A stretch of DNA of 64,000 nt. It comes from a virus. Taxonomy: Duplodnaviria > Heunggongvirae > Uroviricota > Caudoviricetes. Where the stretch lies: positions 1-64,000 of IMG/VR virus record IMGVR_UViG_2654587728_000014; one strand, written 5' to 3'. Made by a program: the position numbers and the translations under genes. A model generated the notes under the pieces. The model saw only the letters and a program-made list of their open reading frames with translations. It was not told the origin of the DNA and searched no databases. Shown piece after piece: positions 26,921 through 64,000 of the stretch; position 1 is the stretch's first letter; each line of letters opens with the position of its first letter.

Positions 26921-28416
26921 TGGCGAGGGGTATCTGGGTTTCACCCGATGAATTTGTTGCTTTTTCTGAGCCTCAGAAATCACTGACCGCGCAGATTGCC
27001 TCCCGCAGCCGCGCGATCGACTTTTACGGACTGGGCATGTATCTGCCCAATCCTGATCCCATTCTCAAGGCTCAGGGACGGGATATCCGTATCTACCGCG
27101 AACTGCGCACCGACCCGCTGGTCGGGGGCTGTATCCGCAGACGTAAAGCAGCGCTTAAATCGCTGGAGCGTGGACTGGAGCGTGGTCACGCCTCTGCCCG
27201 GGTCTTCCGTTTCATCCGCGACATGCTCGACGATCTGGATCTGTCCCGCATCATCGGTGAAATGAGCGATGCCGTGCTCTACGGGTATCAGCCCTGTGAA
27301 ATCATGTGGGGCCGTTCGGTCAGGTCGTGGGCGGTGACGGATATTGTCGGCAAACCGCCTGAGTGGTTTCAGTTTGATACGGACAACTGCCTGCGCTTCC
27401 GGGCGCGTGATGCGGGTGTGGAGGGTGAGCTGCTGTCACCGTCAAAATTCGTGGTGCCGGCACAGGATGCCTCGTATGACAATCCTTACGGTTTCCCGGA
27501 CCTGTCCATGTGCTTCTGGCCGGTCGCCTTCAAGAAAGGCGGGATGAAATTCTGGCTCCGCTTTGCCGAAAAGTTTGGCTCCCCGTGGGTGATCGGTAAG
27601 CACCCGAGGGGTGCAAATGATGCAGAGATTGAAAAACTGCTGGACTCCATGGAGCAGATGGTGGAGGACGCGGTGGCCGCCATCCCCGATGACAGCAGCA
27701 TCGAACTCAAAGCCGCGGATGGTAAGGCGGACAGCAGCGAGGTATTCCGCGAGCTGATCACACTGTCACGCAGTGAGATCTCCATTGCATTACTCGGTCA
27801 GAATCAGACCACGGAAGCGAACAGTAACAAGGCCTCTGCACAGGCCGGGCTGGAGGTAACGGCTGATATCCGCGATGCGGATGCGGACATCATTCAGGCG
27901 GCAGTGAATCAGGTCATCAGAACGGTGGTCACCCTGAACTTCGGCGATGTGCCGTGTCCGGTCTGGGCCATGTGGGAACAGGAGGCCATTGATGACACCC
28001 GTGCCACCCGCGACGAAAAACTCACCCGGGCGGGTCTGCGTCTGACCCCGCAGTACTTCAAGCGTGAGTACCAACTGCAGGACGGCGATATTGACGAGAC
28101 ACCACCGTCGGAACGACAGAATAACATGCTGCCGCTGTCATTTGCCGAGGCGATTGATGCTGATATTCAGGCTCAGCAGCAGCTTGACGACGCGCTGGAC
28201 ATTCTGATGAACGGAGGCGCGTTAAATGGCACGCTGGAACCCGTCCTGGCACCTCTGTTCAGGCGGGTCGAAAATGGGGTTAACCCGTCTGAGCTGCTGG
28301 GCGAACTGGCGGAGCTCTACCCTCAGATGAACACGGACGATCTGCAGGAGCGGCTGGCCCGCATTCTCTTTGTGACAAATATCCGGGGGCGTCTGCATGA
28401 GCGTGACAACGGCTGA
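26920..28416 (+). CDS. portal protein (Mu gp29-like)
   Basis: 498 aa following terminase. Confidence 0.82.
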   Translation: MARGIWVSPDEFVAFSEPQKSLTAQIASRSRAIDFYGLGMYLPNPDPILKAQGRDIRIYRELRTDPLVGGCIRRRKAALKSLERGLERGHASARVFRFIRDMLDDLDLSRIIGEMSDAVLYGYQPCEIMWGRSVRSWAVTDIVGKPPEWFQFDTDNCLRFRARDAGVEGELLSPSKFVVPAQDASYDNPYGFPDLSMCFWPVAFKKGGMKFWLRFAEKFGSPWVIGKHPRGANDAEIEKLLDSMEQMVEDAVAAIPDDSSIELKAADGKADSSEVFRELITLSRSEISIALLGQNQTTEANSNKASAQAGLEVTADIRDADADIIQAAVNQVIRTVVTLNFGDVPCPVWAMWEQEAIDDTRATRDEKLTRAGLRLTPQYFKREYQLQDGDIDETPPSERQNNMLPLSFAEAIDADIQAQQQLDDALDILMNGGALNGTLEPVLAPLFRRVENGVNPSELLGELAELYPQMNTDDLQERLARILFVTNIRGRLHERDNG

Positions 28417-29218
28417 ACTGGCGTACTGCATGACGCTTCCCCCGAAGCGGGCAATCAACTACCTGAAGTCCAAAGGGTATCAGATTACCTGGGACTGGGA
28501 AGAAATGTGGCAGGAGGCCCATGCCCGCGCCTTTACCGTTGCTAAAGTGACCCGCCTGGATATCCTGGAAGATATTCGCGGGGCACTGCAGCAGGCTGTC
28601 GATGAAGGAAAAACCGATCGCTGGTTCCGGCAGGAGCTGGAGCCGGTGCTGAAGCGTAAGGGATGGTGGGGACCACGTGACACGACTGACCCGGTAACGG
28701 GTGAGCCAGTCACCATTCAGCAGGGCAGTCCGTGGCGGCTCGATACCATCTTTCGCACCAATATGTCCGTACTCTACAGCGCCGGTCGTTGGGCGGAACA
28801 GATGGAAAACGTCGACGACAGGCCGTACTGGATGTATACCGGCATCAACGACAGCCATACCCGCAGGAGCCATCTGGCGCTGCATGGTCTGGTGCTGCGC
28901 TGGGATGACCCGTTCTGGCAGGCATTTTACCCGCCGAACGGCTGGCGCTGCCGCTGTAGTGTGATTGCCCTGAGTGCGGCGGATGTACGTGCCCGTGGCC
29001 TGAAGGTTATCAGCTCCGGCTCTGCCATGGGCCAGGAACTGAAACTGGTCTCAGAGAAAACCGGCGAAATGCGGAACGTGGCCACCTTTAATACCGGCAC
29101 CACGAAGGTGATCACCGACGTCGGCTGGTCTTATGCACCGGGGGCAGCATACCGTCCCGACCTGGCCCGCTATCAGGGTACGCTTCAGCCACTGGCACAA
29201 CAGGAACTGAGAGGATAA
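28397..29218 (+). CDS. head morphogenesis protein (Mu F-like)
   Basis: 273 aa; Mu F family by position after portal. Confidence 0.75.
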   Translation: MSVTTAELAYCMTLPPKRAINYLKSKGYQITWDWEEMWQEAHARAFTVAKVTRLDILEDIRGALQQAVDEGKTDRWFRQELEPVLKRKGWWGPRDTTDPVTGEPVTIQQGSPWRLDTIFRTNMSVLYSAGRWAEQMENVDDRPYWMYTGINDSHTRRSHLALHGLVLRWDDPFWQAFYPPNGWRCRCSVIALSAADVRARGLKVISSGSAMGQELKLVSEKTGEMRNVATFNTGTTKVITDVGWSYAPGAAYRPDLARYQGTLQPLAQQELRG

Positions 29219-29220
29219 CA

Positions 29221-29679
29221 ATGGCTTCCGATAACCTGGTCAGTATCACCATTAACGATAAATCCCTGCGCCGGAGCCTCCGTGCGCTGGATCTTGCTGC
29301 CACAGACCTGGAGCCCGCGATGCGCAAAATTGCCGGAACCCTGCTGGCGGAAACACAGTTTAACTTTCTTGATGAGGGGCGTCCGGGGTGGATGCCCTCG
29401 CTGGCAGCGGAAGAGCGTGACGGGCAGACACTGCAGGATACCGGGCGTCTGATGGGGTCAGTATCAACCGACCATGACGACCGGCAGGCTGTTGTGGGGA
29501 CCAACGTTGTTTACGGTGCCATTCACCAGTTCGGGGGTAAAACGGGGCGTAATGAGTCTGTTGAACTTCCGGCCCGCCCGTTCCTGCCGGTGACGGGGGA
29601 TGGAGAACTACAGCCTGAAGTGGTAATCCCCATCCTCGATACCATTGTCCGCCATCTTGAATCAGCGGCCCGTCGCTGA
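29221..29679 (+). CDS. virion morphogenesis protein (Mu G-like)
   Basis: 152 aa after F-like gene. Confidence 0.65.
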   Translation: MASDNLVSITINDKSLRRSLRALDLAATDLEPAMRKIAGTLLAETQFNFLDEGRPGWMPSLAAEERDGQTLQDTGRLMGSVSTDHDDRQAVVGTNVVYGAIHQFGGKTGRNESVELPARPFLPVTGDGELQPEVVIPILDTIVRHLESAARR

Positions 29680-29724
29680 GTTTTCTCTCTTCAGGCGGGT
29701 GATTTATCATTGCCAGCGAATGAG

Positions 29725-29770
29725 GGGCTGTATTACCTTTATAAAGGCTTTACAGCCTCTGTTTTATAAC
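29725..29770 (+). terminator. hairpin/terminator before a 215-bp promoter gap upstream of protease gene
   Basis: GGCTGTA...TACAGCC dyad followed by TCTGTTTTAT; Mu has a late promoter before gene I. Confidence 0.4.
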
Positions 29771-29893
29771 CGCCTCCGGTTCACCGTATTGCTTTCCCTG
29801 TCCTTCTCCCCTGATGTTTTCTAAAGCAGATTAAAATCGCCGGGCCTGCATTTCTCACAAACTGTCTCCGACAACATAACGCGGGACAGCAAA

Positions 29894-31009
29894 ATGTCAG
29901 CCATTCACATTTTTAAAGCCGGTACTCATACCGATATGCACGGCAAAAAACTGCCGTTCACGCCAGACGATCTTGCCGCCTGCGTGAAAGCCTATGACCC
30001 GTCCGTCCATGAAGCACCACTCGTGATTGGTCATCCCAGAACGGAAGACCCGGCGTGGGGCTGGGTGAAAGCCCTGTCGCTCAGCGGCGTCGATCTGATG
30101 GCAGAGCCTGCCCAGCTGGACCCGCAGTTTGCTGAGATGGTCACCGACGGACGATTCAAAAAAGTGTCCGCCTCTTTCTACCTCCCGGATTCACCGTCCA
30201 ATCCGAAGCCCGGCGTGCTCTACCTGCGCCATGTGGGCTTTCTCGGGGCACAGCCACCTTCCGTCAAGGGGCTGAAACAGGTGTCCTTCAGTGAGCAGGA
30301 AGAAGGTGTGGTGGAGTTCGCCGACTGGCAGGCCATCACGAATGCCTCCCTGTGGGGAAAGCTGCGCGATTTTCTGATCGCCCGCTTCAGTCTGGACGAA
30401 GCAGAAAAAGTCCTGCCGGAATGGCAGCTCAACAATCTGCGCGAAGAGGCGTACCGCGACACACCGTCGCAGGATGCAGCAGGTGCGCAATTCAGTGAGA
30501 CAGGCCAGGTGCCGTCTTCCGCAAGTAACGAGGAATCATCGATGACAAAAGAAGAGATTGAAGCCCTTCAGGAGGAGAACCGCCGCCTGAAGCAGCAGGC
30601 TGCTGATCGCGATGCGCGTGATGCACAGGTCAGACAGGAGCAACTGCATAAGGACAATGTGGCCTTTGCAGAAAAACTGGTCGCAGAGGGCCGTCTGGCT
30701 CCCCGCGCCTCCTCCGTGGTGGTTGCCCTGCTGGATGCCGTCGCCGGTGGCGACAAGCCGGTGGAGTTTGCTGAGGGGGAAAGCCGCACACCGCTGGCCA
30801 CCGCCTTTCGTTCATTGCTCTCCGACGGGGAGCCGGTGATGAATTTCGCCGAACAGGCCACAAAAGAGCGTGTCGGCGACACGGTGAAGGTGGATGTGGC
30901 AGAGTTTGCGGAAGCCGATCCTGAGCGTCTGGCCCTGCATCAGAAAGCAGTGGCCCTGTCCAAAAAAGAAGGCATCAGCTATGAGGCTGCTGTCGCACGC
31001 TGCCTGTAA
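29894..31009 (+). CDS. prohead protease/scaffold (Mu I-like)
   Basis: 371 aa; MSAIHIFKAGTHTDMHGK... Mu I family. Confidence 0.8.
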   Translation: MSAIHIFKAGTHTDMHGKKLPFTPDDLAACVKAYDPSVHEAPLVIGHPRTEDPAWGWVKALSLSGVDLMAEPAQLDPQFAEMVTDGRFKKVSASFYLPDSPSNPKPGVLYLRHVGFLGAQPPSVKGLKQVSFSEQEEGVVEFADWQAITNASLWGKLRDFLIARFSLDEAEKVLPEWQLNNLREEAYRDTPSQDAAGAQFSETGQVPSSASNEESSMTKEEIEALQEENRRLKQQAADRDARDAQVRQEQLHKDNVAFAEKLVAEGRLAPRASSVVVALLDAVAGGDKPVEFAEGESRTPLATAFRSLLSDGEPVMNFAEQATKERVGDTVKVDVAEFAEADPERLALHQKAVALSKKEGISYEAAVARCL

Positions 31010-57847: not shown

Positions 57848-58893
57848 TGAGCAGAAAAAATAAAAAAGTGCGCATGAGTTCACGCATTGATCTCGCTGAT
57901 GCGCTCAGGAAAGAATCATCGCTCAGTGCATTCACATTTGATGGTCCTTATCGCCTGACCGGGCATGACCTGCTGGACAATATGTACTGTGCTGATAACG
58001 GGCGGTGGTATGAAACCCCGGTGGACTGGTACGGTCTGGCAAGAGCAGCCCGGCAAACGTCCTGGCATCAGTCTGCGCTTTACTTTAAGCGCAATGTATT
58101 ACTCGGTTGCTACATCCCGCACCCGCTGCTTTCCCGGCAGGATTTCTCGGCGCTGGCGCTGGACTGGTTTGTGTTCGGTAACGCATTCCTTGAGCTTCGA
58201 AGCAATATGCTCGGCGAACCGCTTAAATTACGGCACGCCCTGGCGAAATACATGCGACGCGGAAGCGATCTTGAATCATGGTGGTATGTGCAGGATGGCA
58301 AGGACGCGTTTCAGTTTCGTCCTGGCAAAGTGTGCCACCTGATGAATCCGGATATTAACCAGGAAATCTACGGCATGCCGGAATATCTTGGCGCATTACT
58401 CTCGGCCAGCCTTTCTCATTCGGCGGACATGTTCAGAAAACTGTACTACGACAACGGATCCCACGCCGGGTGCATCATCTACATCGGTGCAGCGCAGGTA
58501 AACCGCGAAAGCATGGACTCCCTGAAAGAAACGCTACAGGGGGCACGTGGTGGTGGTGCGTTTAAAAACGTGCTCATTCATGCGCCCAACGGGGGCAAAG
58601 AGGGGGTGCAAATTTTGCCGTTCCAGCAGATCACCGCAAAAGATGAATTCATGAATGTTAAGGCGGCATCCCGTGATGATGTGCTGGCTGCGCACCGCGT
58701 TCCGCCGCAACTGATGGGGGCGATGCCGGGCGAAAAAAGTGCGTTTGGCGATGTGGAGAAGGCAGCGCGGGTTTACGCAATTAACGAGCTGATGCCCGTC
58801 ATGGAGGCTATGAAGCACATCAATGACTGGCTTGGCGAAGAGGTGATCCGTTTTAACTCTTATGCTCTTCTTGATGAAAAAACAGCCCCGTGA
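57847..58893 (+). CDS. Q: P2-like portal protein gpQ
   Basis: 348 aa; ATGA-coupled to P. Confidence 0.9.
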   Translation: MSRKNKKVRMSSRIDLADALRKESSLSAFTFDGPYRLTGHDLLDNMYCADNGRWYETPVDWYGLARAARQTSWHQSALYFKRNVLLGCYIPHPLLSRQDFSALALDWFVFGNAFLELRSNMLGEPLKLRHALAKYMRRGSDLESWWYVQDGKDAFQFRPGKVCHLMNPDINQEIYGMPEYLGALLSASLSHSADMFRKLYYDNGSHAGCIIYIGAAQVNRESMDSLKETLQGARGGGAFKNVLIHAPNGGKEGVQILPFQQITAKDEFMNVKAASRDDVLAAHRVPPQLMGAMPGEKSAFGDVEKAARVYAINELMPVMEAMKHINDWLGEEVIRFNSYALLDEKTAP

Positions 58894-58910
58894 TGGGGCT
58901 GTCCTTTTTA
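58883..58910. terminator. bidirectional hairpin terminator between Q and the first cargo gene
   Basis: CAGCCCCG-TGA-TGGGGCTG with T-runs on both strands. Confidence 0.6.
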
Positions 58911-59432: not shown

Positions 59433-59954
59433 AAGACAGCCTCCATTGATTTCTTTGCTCGTATTTTGCACTTATGAAGTATGGTCGGCAAGGTGCCGTA
59501 TCGCTGACGCGCTTCGCTTGTCTGCTGCTTCGCCGGGGCATAAAAAATTTATGCCCCGGCTCTCCAGCTCCTGTATCAATCAGATAATTTCACGACGCCT
59601 TCCAGTTTATCGCCACCATCGACGGTCAGACTCTTACGCAATTCCACCGCGTTGACTGTATGTTCTCGCTGCCTCAGTGCGATTTTGACGGCCTTACCTT
59701 TCACCCCATCAAATCAAAAGCCCTCACGCCTTTTTCATGCTCAGCGTGAGAAATATGGCCATTCTGTTGTGTCTCTGCGACATCGTTCAGGGAATGCTAT
59801 TTACCCCCTGAAACGCGGGCTGTTCCCCCGTCACCTGCGCGCAGAAAAAACGCGTTTTTTTGTGCACGTACGGATCCTTGACGGATCCAGCCACCACGCG
59901 GGCCGGAAGTACAAAAAGTCGTTCAAAAAAATTGTGCAAACTTGTGCACTATCG

Positions 59955-59986
59955 TGCAAACAAAAAAAGCGCCTTATCGGCGCTTC
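59955..59986 (-). terminator. rho-independent terminator of 89-aa cargo gene
   Basis: on minus strand AAGCGCCGATAAGGCGCTT followed by TTTTTTTGTTTG. Confidence 0.6.
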
Positions 59987-59993
59987 AAAAGTA

Positions 59994-60263
59994 TCAATTG
60001 TTGCTGTTTATTAATCGCCAACCACGAACATATGCTTCATAGGCATCTCTGTGCCTTACAGTTCCAGCCTGGCTAAACGGAATGTTAGCTAAAACTAAAT
60101 CATTCTGAGCCATAGCGCGTCCTTCAAGCGCATCTTTTATGCCTAGCTCAAAAGCACAGGCAGCGCATTTGTGCCGACCTTCTTGTCCTTGATATTCAGG
60201 GAGAGACAGAAATGTTGGATTATAACGATGAGGGTTCTTGCAAATACCTGTTTTAGCCCGCAC
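59994..60263 (-). CDS. hypothetical small protein, hotspot cargo (89 aa, Cys-containing)
   Basis: GTG start with GAGG RBS; own strong terminator; no family recognised. Confidence 0.45.
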   Translation of the reverse strand: MRAKTGICKNPHRYNPTFLSLPEYQGQEGRHKCAACAFELGIKDALEGRAMAQNDLVLANIPFSQAGTVRHRDAYEAYVRGWRLINSNN

Positions 60264-60393
60264 TTTATTTACCTCATAGGAAAAATATGCGTGCCTTTAC
60301 AGAGGTGCGTGTAAGCAATAAAATATACGACGCACATTTTGATTTACTTCGGAAGGCACGCATATCAGGTTAAGTGAGCCCGACCGAGTTTTA

Positions 60394-60427
60394 CGCCCCA
60401 ATAGTTGCTGCTATTGGGGCGTTTTGC
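60394..60427 (+). terminator. plus-strand hairpin terminator with no upstream plus-strand CDS (possible small RNA 3' end)
   Basis: CGCCCCAATAG-TTGCTG-CTATTGGGGCG followed by TTTTG; long-range inverted repeat TATGCGTGCCTT...AAGGCACGCATA upstream. Confidence 0.4.
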
Positions 60428-60627
60428 ATGGACAATGCCGCGCAATTATCTTGTCGCTCACAATGCGAACGATCTTACAAAAAGGCACATTACTGTCAAG
60501 ATAATTGATCGTTTTAATCGATAGATAATAGACAATCTATTTGTTTAACAGATCGATTATTGAAGTAAGTGTGCCAAATGGAATGATACTGTCTCTATAA
60601 ACGTGAGCATTTTTCGCGCAGATGCTT

Positions 60628-60939
60628 TTACTCAGGAAATAACGCCCGGATATTCCCAGCCATCTGGCTGGTTATCTTAGCCACTGGTGCAGACTGTGCT
60701 TCAAACTTTTTTGAGCTGATTTGTGTCACAGGTAACATCTCATCATCAGCCCATGCGGCCAGTCGGTAAGCCTCTGCCGGATTCGTCTTCAGAAGTGCCA
60801 GCCCGGCCAGAAAAGCCACGCGTTGGCCGCTTTTGCGGGCTTCTGGTGTAAGGCTGTCCAGCCAGGCGCATGCTTCTCCTTCGTTCTTGACGGCGGCGGG
60901 CTTCAGATAGAAACTTATCCGTCTGGTTGGTGTCGTCAT
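60628..60939 (-). CDS. parR: ParR-like centromere-binding protein
   Basis: 104 aa from MTTPTRRISFYLKP (compare R1 ParR RRTIAFKLNPD); AAGGAG RBS; 4 nt after parM stop. Confidence 0.6.
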   Translation of the reverse strand: MTTPTRRISFYLKPAAVKNEGEACAWLDSLTPEARKSGQRVAFLAGLALLKTNPAEAYRLAAWADDEMLPVTQISSKKFEAQSAPVAKITSQMAGNIRALFPE

Positions 60940-60943
60940 TGGT

Positions 60944-61903
60944 TTACTCCTTGTCCATTGCGTACAGCCCATTAACCAGAGCAAACTGTGGCACCCCGTC
61001 CGCGATGAAAGTCGCATTAACTCCGCAGGCTTCGCGGATAGCGGGTGCCACAATCTCCGCCCCGCCACCGACAACCATCACCCGCCCGTAACCCGAAAAA
61101 ACCGCCAGCGCGCGGATCACGCGTTGTTTCAGTGTTTCTTCCTTTTCACGAATAACCGCCATCAGGCTGGCGTAATGCGCGTCATTGTGGATGTGCTGGC
61201 GCAGCCAGGCTTCATTATGGCGATGTTCGATAATGGTATTGGCGATGTGGTGACTGGTGCGCATACCGTTAGTGGCCATCACCGACAGTACGGCATCGGC
61301 CATAAGAGAAACGCCTACGTGTGGATCGCAAAACACCTGGCTGATACCTGCCAGTTGCCCCTGAACCTTTGCCACATCCAGCGTGGTTCCGCCCAAATCC
61401 ACAATCAGCAGGGATTCAAACGGACTCATGTCAGCCAGTGCTTTAAAGCCAGCCGGAATGGATTCAGGCATAACCCGTACGTTACGGATAGTGAATGCTT
61501 CGCCGTTCTGGTACTCCACCGGGCGCATGACGTTCGCTTTTTTGCGGTTGATGTTGGCCATGTCCGGCTGTGCGTTTGTGTCGAAATATTCGCTCAGTGG
61601 CAGGGTAACAACCACATCCACTTCCTGTGGCGTGATGTCTGATTTGACCAGCGCGTGATGAATGGCAATGACATTCACATCGCTGTACTGGTATTGCGTG
61701 TCGGTCGTCTGGACAAAGCGATCGCTGACCGGATCAAAACCATAGCGCACGCCATCAAGCATGTAGTTAGCAGGCTGCGAGCCACCGAACGGCGCAGACC
61801 ATTCCGACTTGAAGCTGTTCGGGCTGATGGCGTTGCGGCGTTCGCCGTTCTCAGTCCATGCCAGCTTGATGTTGGTGGAGCCGTCGTCGATGTAAATTTT
61901 CAT
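60944..61903 (-). CDS. parM: ParM/StbA-like actin-family segregation ATPase
   Basis: 319 aa; blocks IDDGSTNIKL, SPNSFK, YSDVNVIAIHHAL, VMPESIPAG, LIVDLGGTTLDV, MVVGGGAE shared with R1 ParM. Confidence 0.85.
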   Translation of the reverse strand: MKIYIDDGSTNIKLAWTENGERRNAISPNSFKSEWSAPFGGSQPANYMLDGVRYGFDPVSDRFVQTTDTQYQYSDVNVIAIHHALVKSDITPQEVDVVVTLPLSEYFDTNAQPDMANINRKKANVMRPVEYQNGEAFTIRNVRVMPESIPAGFKALADMSPFESLLIVDLGGTTLDVAKVQGQLAGISQVFCDPHVGVSLMADAVLSVMATNGMRTSHHIANTIIEHRHNEAWLRQHIHNDAHYASLMAVIREKEETLKQRVIRALAVFSGYGRVMVVGGGAEIVAPAIREACGVNATFIADGVPQFALVNGLYAMDKE

Positions 61904-61932
61904 GTCGGTTTTCCTTATGTTGATTAATTAAT

Positions 61933-62046
61933 CGTTTACGGGATTCTGAAATCCCGTTTTTGCCTGTTTTGTGCGCGCCTCATATATCGCTGCGCGTTTT
62001 TTGCTCATTTACGGGATTCGTGAGTCCCGTTTCTGTCTGTTTTTTG
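61933..62046 (+). repeat. two 41-bp direct repeats, each containing a dyad (ACGGGATTC..GAATCCCGT) and T-rich tail
   Basis: 61933-61973 and 62006-62046, about 80% identical; one in the last codons of A, one between A and parM. Confidence 0.5.
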
Positions 62047-64000
62047 TTTCCACTGGTCAGGCCACCCCGCAGCAGGTCTGCTTTGCGGCTGGCGCGTTCA
62101 GTGGTTTCACTGATTCTCTGTGCGTGCTCTGCGTCGCGGATGGCGCGCAGCATGTCAGAAAGCACGGTAACGGGTGTTTTCATGGTGTTCTGGTCCTGCT
62201 GAAGTGTGGATGCCAGGCGTGCGGCGGCTTCAGGGTCTGATGCCCCCAGCTGTGCCAGATAGCTGGCGACCGGGTTATGGCGGATCTCCGTGCTGCTTAC
62301 GCCATGATTACGGCTCAGACGCTGCCAGAGCTGCGTGATTCGGCTGTCCGGGCGGGTATCCGGTTTGCGTACAATTTCAAATCCCTGCGGTGCAATGATG
62401 CTGCCGTCAACGTACAGACTGCCGCCCCGTAACAGGTGCTGCATCTGTTGTTCACCGATATGCAGGCCGAGAGATTCAGCAGACTCCCGCCATTCTTTAG
62501 CGAGTAACTCGTGGTTATCAGGCAAAGGCCGCTGCTGTTTGCGGCTCTGTGTCCAGTTCTGCATTTCATCGCTGCTGTTTTTTGCCTGTTTGTCACGAAG
62601 CGAACGCATCAGCGCCCGGCGTTCGTGCCGTTTCAGTGAGCGCATCCATTCATTTACTTCAACGCCGTCAGGAAGCTGCGGCCACGGTGCTGGCCGTTCT
62701 TCCGGCTGTTCTGTCCCGTTGTTGCCTGTTTCCTGTACACGGGGACAGTTATTGCCACGAGTCCAAGGGGCGGCAGGGCCGCCCTGAAGGTCAAAACCAT
62801 TTTCGCGGGCGCTGTCTTCCGCTTCCGGTTTGCGTCTTACCAGCTTCCAGTTATCCGGATGCGTGCATACGCGGGAAGACTCCCCAATGAGCGGCGACCA
62901 GATCCCGTAAATCTGTACGCTCTGTTCACCGTAATCGTTCAGCTCATCTGCGAGGTCGTAGGCGGTGCGAATCAGGTAGTCTTTGCGTGGAACAAGTACG
63001 CCACCCTGTTTCTCAATGTAGGTGGCAAAACATCCGGCATCAGCGGCAGCGAGTACCGCGTCCATTGCGTCATCCTTCAGCCGTTGCGGGCCTTCCGGAT
63101 TGCGTGCCATCTGGCTGGCAAGGCGGCGCAGTTCACGCCACACCTGACGGGAGGGGATGCCAAAGAACTGGAACTGACGGACCCGGTGAAGGCGCGCCCA
63201 GCCGATGGCGCGCTCCACGCTCTCGGCCATTGATTTACCTGTTTCGTGGTCAACGCGTGGCTTGCCCGTTTTCGGGTCGATGCCATCCACGGCGCGGCTG
63301 TCCAGGTTCTTTCCGATGTAGGTGGCGATGTAGCTGGTTGGCGTGCCTTTTGAGCCGTCGACGTACTCCGCCTTAAAACGCGGAGTTATGTCATCGCCCA
63401 GCTCGTGGCGGTCTTCCTGAATGGCAATATCGCAGACGTGGGACACGATGGTTTCAATCTCGTCCGGATGTGCAAAGACCATCATATGCCAGTGCACAGT
63501 GCCGTCATGGTGAGGCTCCACCGTGCGGATGCCATACCAGCGCAGGCCGTCGCGGTTCAGTTTTTTGCGGACCGCCGCAAAAAACGTGTTAACCAGGTAA
63601 TCGCTGGAGTCGCGCATTGTGGCCCCGTTCCATTTGGGATTCGGATGACCGTTCTCCGTTGTTGCGTGGTATTTTGACGGGCAGGTGACAGTCAGAAACA
63701 CCGCTCTGTCGCCACGGGCTTCGGCCAGAAGTTCCAGCCCCTTCATGGTGGCCATCATTTCTGCCTTACGGTGAACCGGGTTACTTACTCCCGCGTAATA
63801 CACCGTCTCGAGATCAATCGTGAACCCGTCTTCATTTTCCAGCATGAAACTTTTCAGGAAATCGCGTGTTTTCTCGCGCTGTGCGCGAAACTCGCTTAAC
63901 GCGTCCTGGCTCAGATAGGGTGATGTTTTTCTGGAAACCAGACAGGCGGCGCGGAGTTGTTCTTCCCGCCACTCGCAACGTAACAGCCACAGTTTGCGTT
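61980..64000 (-). CDS. A: P2-like replication initiation protein gpA, C-terminal part (gene continues beyond window end)
   Basis: ORF 61980..63845 open to window edge; rolling-circle initiator with histidine pair HWHMMVF. Confidence 0.85.
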   Translation of the reverse strand, partial: RKLWLLRCEWREEQLRAACLVSRKTSPYLSQDALSEFRAQREKTRDFLKSFMLENEDGFTIDLETVYYAGVSNPVHRKAEMMATMKGLELLAEARGDRAVFLTVTCPSKYHATTENGHPNPKWNGATMRDSSDYLVNTFFAAVRKKLNRDGLRWYGIRTVEPHHDGTVHWHMMVFAHPDEIETIVSHVCDIAIQEDRHELGDDITPRFKAEYVDGSKGTPTSYIATYIGKNLDSRAVDGIDPKTGKPRVDHETGKSMAESVERAIGWARLHRVRQFQFFGIPSRQVWRELRRLASQMARNPEGPQRLKDDAMDAVLAAADAGCFATYIEKQGGVLVPRKDYLIRTAYDLADELNDYGEQSVQIYGIWSPLIGESSRVCTHPDNWKLVRRKPEAEDSARENGFDLQGGPAAPWTRGNNCPRVQETGNNGTEQPEERPAPWPQLPDGVEVNEWMRSLKRHERRALMRSLRDKQAKNSSDEMQNWTQSRKQQRPLPDNHELLAKEWRESAESLGLHIGEQQMQHLLRGGSLYVDGSIIAPQGFEIVRKPDTRPDSRITQLWQRLSRNHGVSSTEIRHNPVASYLAQLGASDPEAAARLASTLQQDQNTMKTPVTVLSDMLRAIRDAEHAQRISETTERASRKADLLRGGLTSGNKKQTETGLTNPVNEQKTRSDI

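Follow-up and report, generated by a model that had tools for sequence, protein, structure and literature searches.

At the junction between gene A and parM of a P88-like prophage lie two tandem repeats with internal dyads, and their position next to the genes of a plasmid-type segregation machine raises the question of what these repeats are for. A preliminary description of this DNA placed three options side by side: the repeats could be tandem terminators, elements of the replication origin, or binding sites for ParR. We weighed these options in the window, that is, in the whole stretch of 64,000 nucleotides that was analyzed, and in a set of related loci. Judged by sequence comparison, the two 42-bp repeats and the 31-bp spacer between them probably represent a parC-like centromere that belongs to a type II ParMRC cassette.

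Two phased dyads at the A-parM junction of a P88-like prophage

The region of the window considered here belongs to a P88-like prophage (Xuanwuvirus, Peduoviridae; P2-family), of which it forms the right-hand end of the early operon; megablast searches showed it to be 94-97% identical to the phages P88, 520873, 503458, Shae_phiSM and others. The genes A, parM and parR follow each other in this order on the minus strand, and the terminase and portal genes converge on them from the plus strand. Gene A (61980-64000, minus strand), the 3' two-thirds of which are present, encodes a P2 gpA-like protein (Pfam Phage_GPA, 3.3e-82), ends with a TGA stop codon at 61982-61980 and runs off the end of the window. 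The list of open reading frames let A start at an ATG at 63845, and the interruption of the gene apparent from this start is not real: the frame aligns unbroken (tblastn) with residues 269-941 of the A protein of Shae_phiSM, a protein of about 940 amino acids in the relatives. Since this alignment continues up to position 64000, the gene is merely cut by the window.

A type II centromere adjoins its operon, typically immediately upstream of parM, contains several repeated binding sites, and has the genes for the cognate ParM and for a ribbon-helix-helix adaptor alongside. Proteins of both kinds are encoded next to the repeats. The parM gene (60944-61903, minus strand) specifies an actin-like segregation ATPase of 319 amino acids (Pfam StbA_N, 9.7e-81; ParM C-terminal domain, 3e-68) that is 46% identical to the ParM protein of plasmid R1. 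It is followed by parR (60628-60939, minus strand), whose product of 103 amino acids is a predicted ParR-like centromere-binding adaptor (Pfam PF10784, 2.4e-23); it shares 34% identity with R1 ParR across a stretch of 56 N-terminal residues, and its family profile matches the pB171 ParR structure 2jd3 (E = 0.0015). The sequence RRISFYLKP at its N-terminus, the predicted strand of the ribbon-helix-helix fold, is invariant in 85 of 86 loci, and the first 60 or so residues remain conserved among ParR variants that otherwise diverge to 43-56% identity. As far as can be read from the protein sequences, this invariant N-terminal strand matches what one would expect of an adaptor with a conserved DNA target. 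An AlphaFold2 model of the ParR monomer, computed from an alignment of 13 sequences, had a mean pLDDT of 55 and left the N-terminal strand unmodelled. A search of the literature for ParM in P88, Xuanwuvirus, Peduoviridae, CP-933T or Sp13 yielded nothing specific.

ParR is mosaic: along with its N-terminal 60 or so residues, the last eight (NIRALFPE), possibly a tail that contacts ParM, are conserved, and the middle of the protein has diverged (60628-60885; relatives P0033-P0061). Phages whose ParR proteins differ in this middle part to the extent given above carry parM genes and repeats that are 97-98% identical. The variable cargo 3' of parR contains two promoter-like sites, each with a 10/12 fit to the consensus, one on the minus strand (60499-60472) and one on the plus strand (60296-60324) that is directed antisense into parR and parM.

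A repeat search revealed two 42-nt direct repeats, 81% identical to each other and with a start-to-start spacing of 73 bp, as the sole substantial repeat family in the cassette. Copy 2, the A-proximal repeat (62005-62046), is contained in the final 22 codons of A; copy 1, the parM-proximal repeat (61932-61973), lies in the 76-bp spacer between A and parM. The preliminary description had thus been right on the presence of the repeats, their spacing of about 73 bp, and their placement at the end of A and in the A-parM spacer; the length of 41 bp that it gave has to be corrected to 42 nt. The whole element spans about 115 bp (61932-62046) and ends 28 bp ahead of the parM start at 61903, so that it sits directly upstream of parM, as do the corresponding regions of plasmid R1 and of IncL/M plasmids.

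Each repeat contains one 20-bp dyad with the consensus ACGGGAyT-N4-ArTCCCGT. Dyad 1 (61938-61957; ACGGGATTCTGAAATCCCGT) is a perfect palindrome with 8-bp arms and eight of eight possible pairs (ACGGGATT-CTGA-AATCCCGT). Dyad 2 (62011-62030; ACGGGATTCGTGAGTCCCGT), which reads ACGGGATT-CGTG-AGTCCCGT on the plus strand, has seven Watson-Crick pairs and one T.G pair in the window, and its commonest form among the relatives is likewise a perfect palindrome (ACGGGATT-N4-AATCCCGT). The 31-bp spacer between the repeats (61974-62004) harbors the stop codon of A at 61980-61982; by direct reading, we also found in it a short GC-rich inverted repeat around GATATAT and an additional A-tract unit, CAAAAAACGCG on the sense strand. 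When the 64-kb window was searched with the dyad pattern ACGGGAYTNNNNARTCCCGT and up to two mismatches, exactly two matches were obtained, compared to an expectation of 0.05, and none of 100 shuffled sequences reached two. The complete 35.8-kb genome of P88 contains no further copy of the dyad with up to three mismatches allowed. Because the dyad is unique to this place in the window and in the P88 genome, it is not an operator shared with the lysogeny switch.

The element is also phased with the DNA helix. The segment 61921-62051 has the strongest 10.5-bp periodicity of T-tracts among 6388 sliding windows on both strands of the 64 kb, and its phasing value was matched by 8 of 2000 shuffles of the region. 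The 73-bp spacing of the repeats corresponds to seven helical turns; consequently, both dyads face the same side of the DNA. By eye, shorter CnGTTT / AAACnG units can be made out at multiples of about 10.5 bp within the element, and of all these units only the two long repeats are statistically secure. We also tried the short motifs CNGTWTTTT and CNGTTTNTG as a link to iterons of the IncL/M type; their matches are scattered across the window, and since the motifs are of low information, no claim is drawn from them. The second-strongest 10.5-bp phasing of T-tracts in the window is found on the minus strand at 59841-60011, in the cargo that separates the portal gene from parR, where it adjoins a strong minus-strand terminator-like hairpin (59986-59966).

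Inheritance of the repeats with parMR

We collected 80 related loci that retain this region and aligned a 241-bp segment that includes the repeats. Of these loci, 79 have both dyads, the exception being a decayed locus without copy 2, and their 73-bp spacing is kept in all loci with both dyads but one, in which a single nucleotide of the spacer has been deleted. With the window included, repeat copy 1 is present in 81 of 81 related sequences. Two of the loci are decayed and have been cut by insertion sequences, namely L065 and L002, the latter on a plasmid.

Particularly informative are three loci whose upstream sequence is unrelated to that of the window. In L063 and L050, homology begins at the 5' edge of repeat 2, and in L045 it begins a few bases ahead of dyad 2. 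The A gene of L050 and L063 is shorter, and a separate open reading frame for 155-159 amino acids is located between A and the repeats; in L063, this frame stops about 40 bp ahead of repeat 2, so that both repeats are intergenic. In L045, the upstream open reading frame reads repeat 2 in another frame and stops inside it. From the start of homology at or just before repeat 2 despite the unrelated upstream DNA, it follows that the repeats are inherited along with parMR and independently of A, and since repeat 2 is intergenic in one locus and read in another frame in a second, it is kept as DNA and not by virtue of a protein sequence. The overlap of repeat 2 with the last 22 codons of A in the window is therefore incidental. 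The extra open reading frame (1493-1960 in L050, phrog_21788, function unknown; 1374-1853 in L063) replaces the long C-terminal region of the P88-type A protein, and a search of the phage collection for upstream segments of the L050 or L063 type without parMR gave no match.

The other edge of the conserved block lies inside parR. Relatives with a ParR protein of about 55% identity match the window at 97% from A at the window end down to about position 60885, roughly codon 18 of parR (megablast). Taken together, the edges of homology at repeat 2 and inside parR define a unit that travels together and consists of dyad 2, the spacer, dyad 1, parM and the 5' end of parR. Matches to ParR were obtained by tblastn only in the P88-like phage family, and the identity of ParM falls from 94% to 47-52% with nothing in between. 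Since relatives of intermediate similarity are missing for both proteins, the dyad could not be followed into other genomic contexts, and with all known members in one phage family, the association with parMR is testable at mosaic boundaries only.

The mosaic joints at the edge of the repeats would also fit a different history, in which the repeats have no function of their own and are a scar of local duplication or recombination, left behind when the parMR cassette joined the phage. Nucleotide diversity is in keeping with such a scar: among 76 close relatives, pi amounts to 0.047-0.050 in the dyad arms, to 0.051 in the spacer and to 0.038-0.042 in the neighbouring coding sequence, so the arms show no measurable excess of conservation over their flanks, and purifying selection on them is not demonstrable from these 76 relatives. 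The 4-nt loops of the dyads are clearly more variable (pi 0.12-0.23). A scar would, however, hardly be expected to retain both copies and their 73-bp spacing in nearly all of the 80 loci, and perfect palindromes, helical phasing and a position exactly as expected for parC are unlikely features for it. We consider this explanation improbable.

The element is common. Of 5426 complete E. coli genomes, 1303 contain the 241-bp repeat region; 1440 of its occurrences are chromosomal and two are on plasmids. Individual E. coli genomes have it at up to three places, so that several copies of the same putative centromere can coexist in one cell; in the O157:H7 strain FRIK944, the region is 100% identical.

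Transcript ends, RNA hairpins and the P2 origin

Both dyads have the shape of intrinsic terminators on the plus strand. In a terminator scan of that strand, each passed with a stem of eight pairs, four of them G-C, a 4-nt loop and five T residues in the next eight bases, which bears out the earlier claim of a stem followed by a T-run antisense to A; the T-runs read TTTTTGCC or TTCTGTCTG. The stem-loops alone have a folding energy of -9.7 kcal/mol, the 53-nt segments around the dyads reach -12.3 and -10.2 kcal/mol (z about -1.7), and most of the 80 loci keep the plus-strand hairpin with its U-run. As a pair of terminators antisense to parR, parM and A, the dyads would keep convergent transcripts that originate in the late operon or the cargo from entering A, a function compatible with binding of ParR; the promoter-like site at 60296-60324 (TTTACA-17-TAAAAT) points into parR in the antisense direction.

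The genomic setting argues against this being the main role of the dyads. No plus-strand open reading frame ends within about 1.9 kb of them, the nearest end being at about 60014, and the dyads are situated antisense inside the A-parM-parR string and not at the end of a plus-strand transcription unit. The portal stop codon has a stronger terminator-like hairpin of its own (58882-58902, plus strand; nine pairs, six of them G-C), which is followed by CCTTTTTACC and is likely the end of the terminase-portal late transcript. The promoter-like site at 60296 is part of cargo that varies between relatives, and inheritance links the repeats to parMR, not to the 3' end of A. Moreover, 12 of the 80 loci have a weakened antisense hairpin of dyad 1, with -3.3 or -3.5 kcal/mol, whereas its sense version keeps -7.5 to -7.8 kcal/mol, the T-run is shortened to TTTC in 13 loci, and no compensatory two-sided changes of the stems were seen. 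Of the terminator proposal in the preliminary description, the shape thus stands but the context does not, and we regard it as unlikely to be the primary explanation; a secondary insulating role is conceivable and would not conflict with the predicted binding of ParR.

The same hairpins also form in the sense RNA, nearly as stably as on the plus strand (-11.4 and -9.0 kcal/mol), with no U-run after them. They might then act within the A-parM-parR mRNA as a processing site or as a barrier to 3'-exonucleases and uncouple the stability or translation of A from that of parMR. The commonest variants of dyad 1 do retain G.U wobbles on the sense strand, but in dyad 2 of the window and in both dyads of L050, the wobbles are on the antisense strand and the sense strand is left with A.C mismatches. 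All stem substitutions in the 80 loci are one-sided, without any compensatory change, and include parallel G-to-A changes in both dyads of L050; from these one-sided changes and the occurrence of wobbles on either strand, it follows that there is no strand-specific RNA signal. The z-scores of the sense folds are only -1.8 to -2.2, and an Rfam scan of 60400-62600 with E-values up to 1 produced nothing beyond a chance match (20 bits, compared to a gathering score of 63.6). Sense hairpins would, in addition, leave the helically phased A-tracts unexplained, and we deem a role in the mRNA quite improbable.

The notion of the repeats as accessory origin elements that the A protein recognizes derives from the location of the P2 origin inside the 3' part of A, since repeat 2 is part of the 3' end of A here. 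The premise is correct: the nick site of P2 is annotated at 29892 within A (28034-30319), 427 bp ahead of the A stop codon, with the nicked sequence GCGCCTCGGAGTCCTGTCAATAAC and the surrounding sequence GCCGCGCCTCGGAGTCCTGTCAATAACTGT. Comparison with the P2 origin nevertheless puts the homologue of the nick site elsewhere in the window, on the minus strand at about 62774-62745 (GCCGCCCCTTGGACTCGTGGCAATAACTGT), where 25 of 30 bases are identical to P2 and the equivalent of the nick falls at about 62764. The A proteins of the window prophage and of P2 are 35% identical. In megablast searches, 62737-62786 was the sole part of a 3.5-kb query that was matched in dozens of otherwise diverged P2-like phages, and these 50 bp or so are roughly 90% identical across diverged P2-like phages of Klebsiella, Salmonella and Yersinia. 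Such conservation at the DNA level is the pattern expected of an origin.

The repeats resemble the P2 origin in their location in or beside the 3' part of A. Unlike it, they contain no P2-type nick sequence, and the true homologue, about 718 bp upstream of the nearest repeat (repeat 2), shares no sequence with them. P2 itself has nothing like the repeats at the corresponding place, where A is directly followed by orf91, and in L050 and L063 another open reading frame separates A from the repeats. With the nick-site homologue located elsewhere, we reject the assignment of the repeats to the origin, and the chance that they nonetheless serve A as accessory elements appears very slight.

The putative centromere and its possible use by the phage

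Among the options of the preliminary description, that of ParR-binding sites is favored by the position of the element directly upstream of parM, the uniqueness of the dyads, their phasing, their co-inheritance with parMR and the invariant beta-strand of the predicted ParR adaptor. From these sequence features, we infer binding by ParR, as well as the register in which it would occur. Dimers of the ribbon-helix-helix protein would bind both 20-bp dyads and probably also the adjacent helix-phased A-tract units; the dyads, seven helical turns apart, would face the same side of a segment with intrinsic curvature. The resulting ParR-DNA complex would capture the ends of ParM filaments, and these filaments might in turn push or position copies of the phage DNA. 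Among the points against a centromere are that there are two long repeats only, compared to ten iterons in R1, and that the element is also shaped like a plus-strand terminator.

One comparison is parC of plasmid R1, a region of 159 bp, reported to be strongly curved, in which a 39-bp core with the promoter is flanked on each side by five 11-bp iterons and which ParR folds into a U (PMC2241845). The phage element resembles it in its position immediately upstream of homologous parM and parR genes that follow in this order, in the two repeat blocks that flank a central segment, in the helix-phased A/T-tracts that imply curvature, and in a similar ribosome-binding region (CATAAGGA). The differences concern the repeats themselves, which are direct 11-bp iterons (AAACCCAAAAA-like) in R1 and 42-bp units around 20-bp palindromes here, and the overall design: the 159 bp of R1 include the par promoter in the core, whereas the phage element of about 115 bp has no promoter consensus and overlaps the end of the upstream gene. 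This palindromic, promoter-less layout that overlaps the end of A is unlike that of R1 parC. A matrix derived from the ten R1 iterons gave scores of 6.3-7.8 bits in the region, at ranks 114-298 of 352 matches in the window; since it does not pick the region, any recognition by ParR would be of a different sequence.

We scanned the element and its immediate surroundings for sigma-70 consensus promoters and found none on the sense strand at a 9/12 or a relaxed 7/12 fit, weak or activator-dependent promoters being outside the reach of such a scan, and none on either strand of the 31-bp spacer. By this consensus scan, the autoregulated par promoter that lies within R1 parC is not seen in the phage element. 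An internal par promoter is not universal, since the srpMRC system of SXT/R391 elements functions without one (PMC4489591).

The closest plasmid ParM proteins (52% identical) are encoded by IncL/M plasmids, and there too, two T-rich blocks of 10-12-nt repeats are located upstream of parM at a block spacing of 73 bp. On plasmid p24A17014B_A_KPC, these repeats occupy 766-881 of the locus (L091) and read CGGTATTTTTCT and similar. In contrast to the phage element, the T-rich strand is the sense strand of parM in IncL/M plasmids and the antisense strand in the phage, a TTTACA-17-TAATAAT promoter is present between the blocks, and there is no 20-bp palindrome; the IncL/M region is itself a candidate centromere.

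Two systems on chromosomally integrated elements are of further interest. The centromere of srpMRC, srpC, consists of a few repeats, some direct and some inverted, that precede the actin-like gene; both its binding and the stabilization of plasmids by it have been demonstrated experimentally (PMC4489591). Like the phage cassette, srpMRC is a type II cassette on a normally integrated element, and its proposed action is limited to the excised circle (PMC4489591). It is expressed from an upstream regulated promoter and has no autonomous par promoter (PMC4489591), a situation similar to that of the phage cassette if the latter is read from A. It differs in that SrpR has no detectable similarity to ParR, that its repeats are 13 bp long, and that it resides on a conjugative element and not on a phage. 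In the Corynebacterium prophage CGP3, the AlpA/AlpC/alpS system consists of an actin-like filament and an adaptor that binds repeats upstream of the operon, and it has been linked to the transport and replication of phage DNA after induction (PMC5539076). CGP3 shares with the cassette studied here a prophage-encoded actin-like filament with an adaptor and sites upstream of the operon; its protein families and host are unrelated, and its alpS repeat is the short sequence TTAAnnG.

The P88-like prophage is nearly always integrated, and the site lacks a promoter consensus; from this, transcription together with A and action on circles appear probable. The cassette would accordingly be part of the early operon transcript, and it would act only on extrachromosomal phage circles, be it after infection, after excision or during replication. 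If, as is probable, parMR is reached by readthrough from A and depends on the early promoter, a repressed lysogen would not express the cassette. Tentatively, we suggest that a P2-family phage that resides in roughly one in four complete E. coli genomes, O157:H7 among them, carries a functional ParMRC system with a two-dyad centromere and uses it to position or segregate extrachromosomal circles, either in replication after induction or infection or in temporary persistence as a plasmid; this larger proposal is possible but doubtful at present. If it is true, P88-like phages would be facultative phage-plasmids, or a classical temperate coliphage would employ actin-driven handling of its DNA.

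The candidate parC is an unannotated element in a very common E. coli prophage family and belongs to a known kind of system, and it leaves the understanding of the ParMRC mechanism unchanged. Should ParR bind the repeats, P88-like prophages would carry a complete ParMRC system and not two orphan genes. Annotators would gain a defined cis site, and with it a parC variant made of palindromes that overlap the 3' end of a replication gene. We see the interest less in the site than in its implication, a complete actin-type partition system within a very common integrating prophage of the P2 family, which raises the question of how an integrating P2-type phage uses a plasmid segregation machine. It might stabilize excised or newly injected circles, organize replication, or support a plasmid-like carrier state.

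One database entry deserves mention in its own right. A complete P88-like phage of 34461 bp from an E. coli isolate from a cat has been deposited as a circular 'plasmid' (NZ_CP148288.1; L092); this entry could reflect a plasmid state or merely induced phage DNA, and it contains int, C, cox, A, parM, parR, terminase, and capsid and tail genes.
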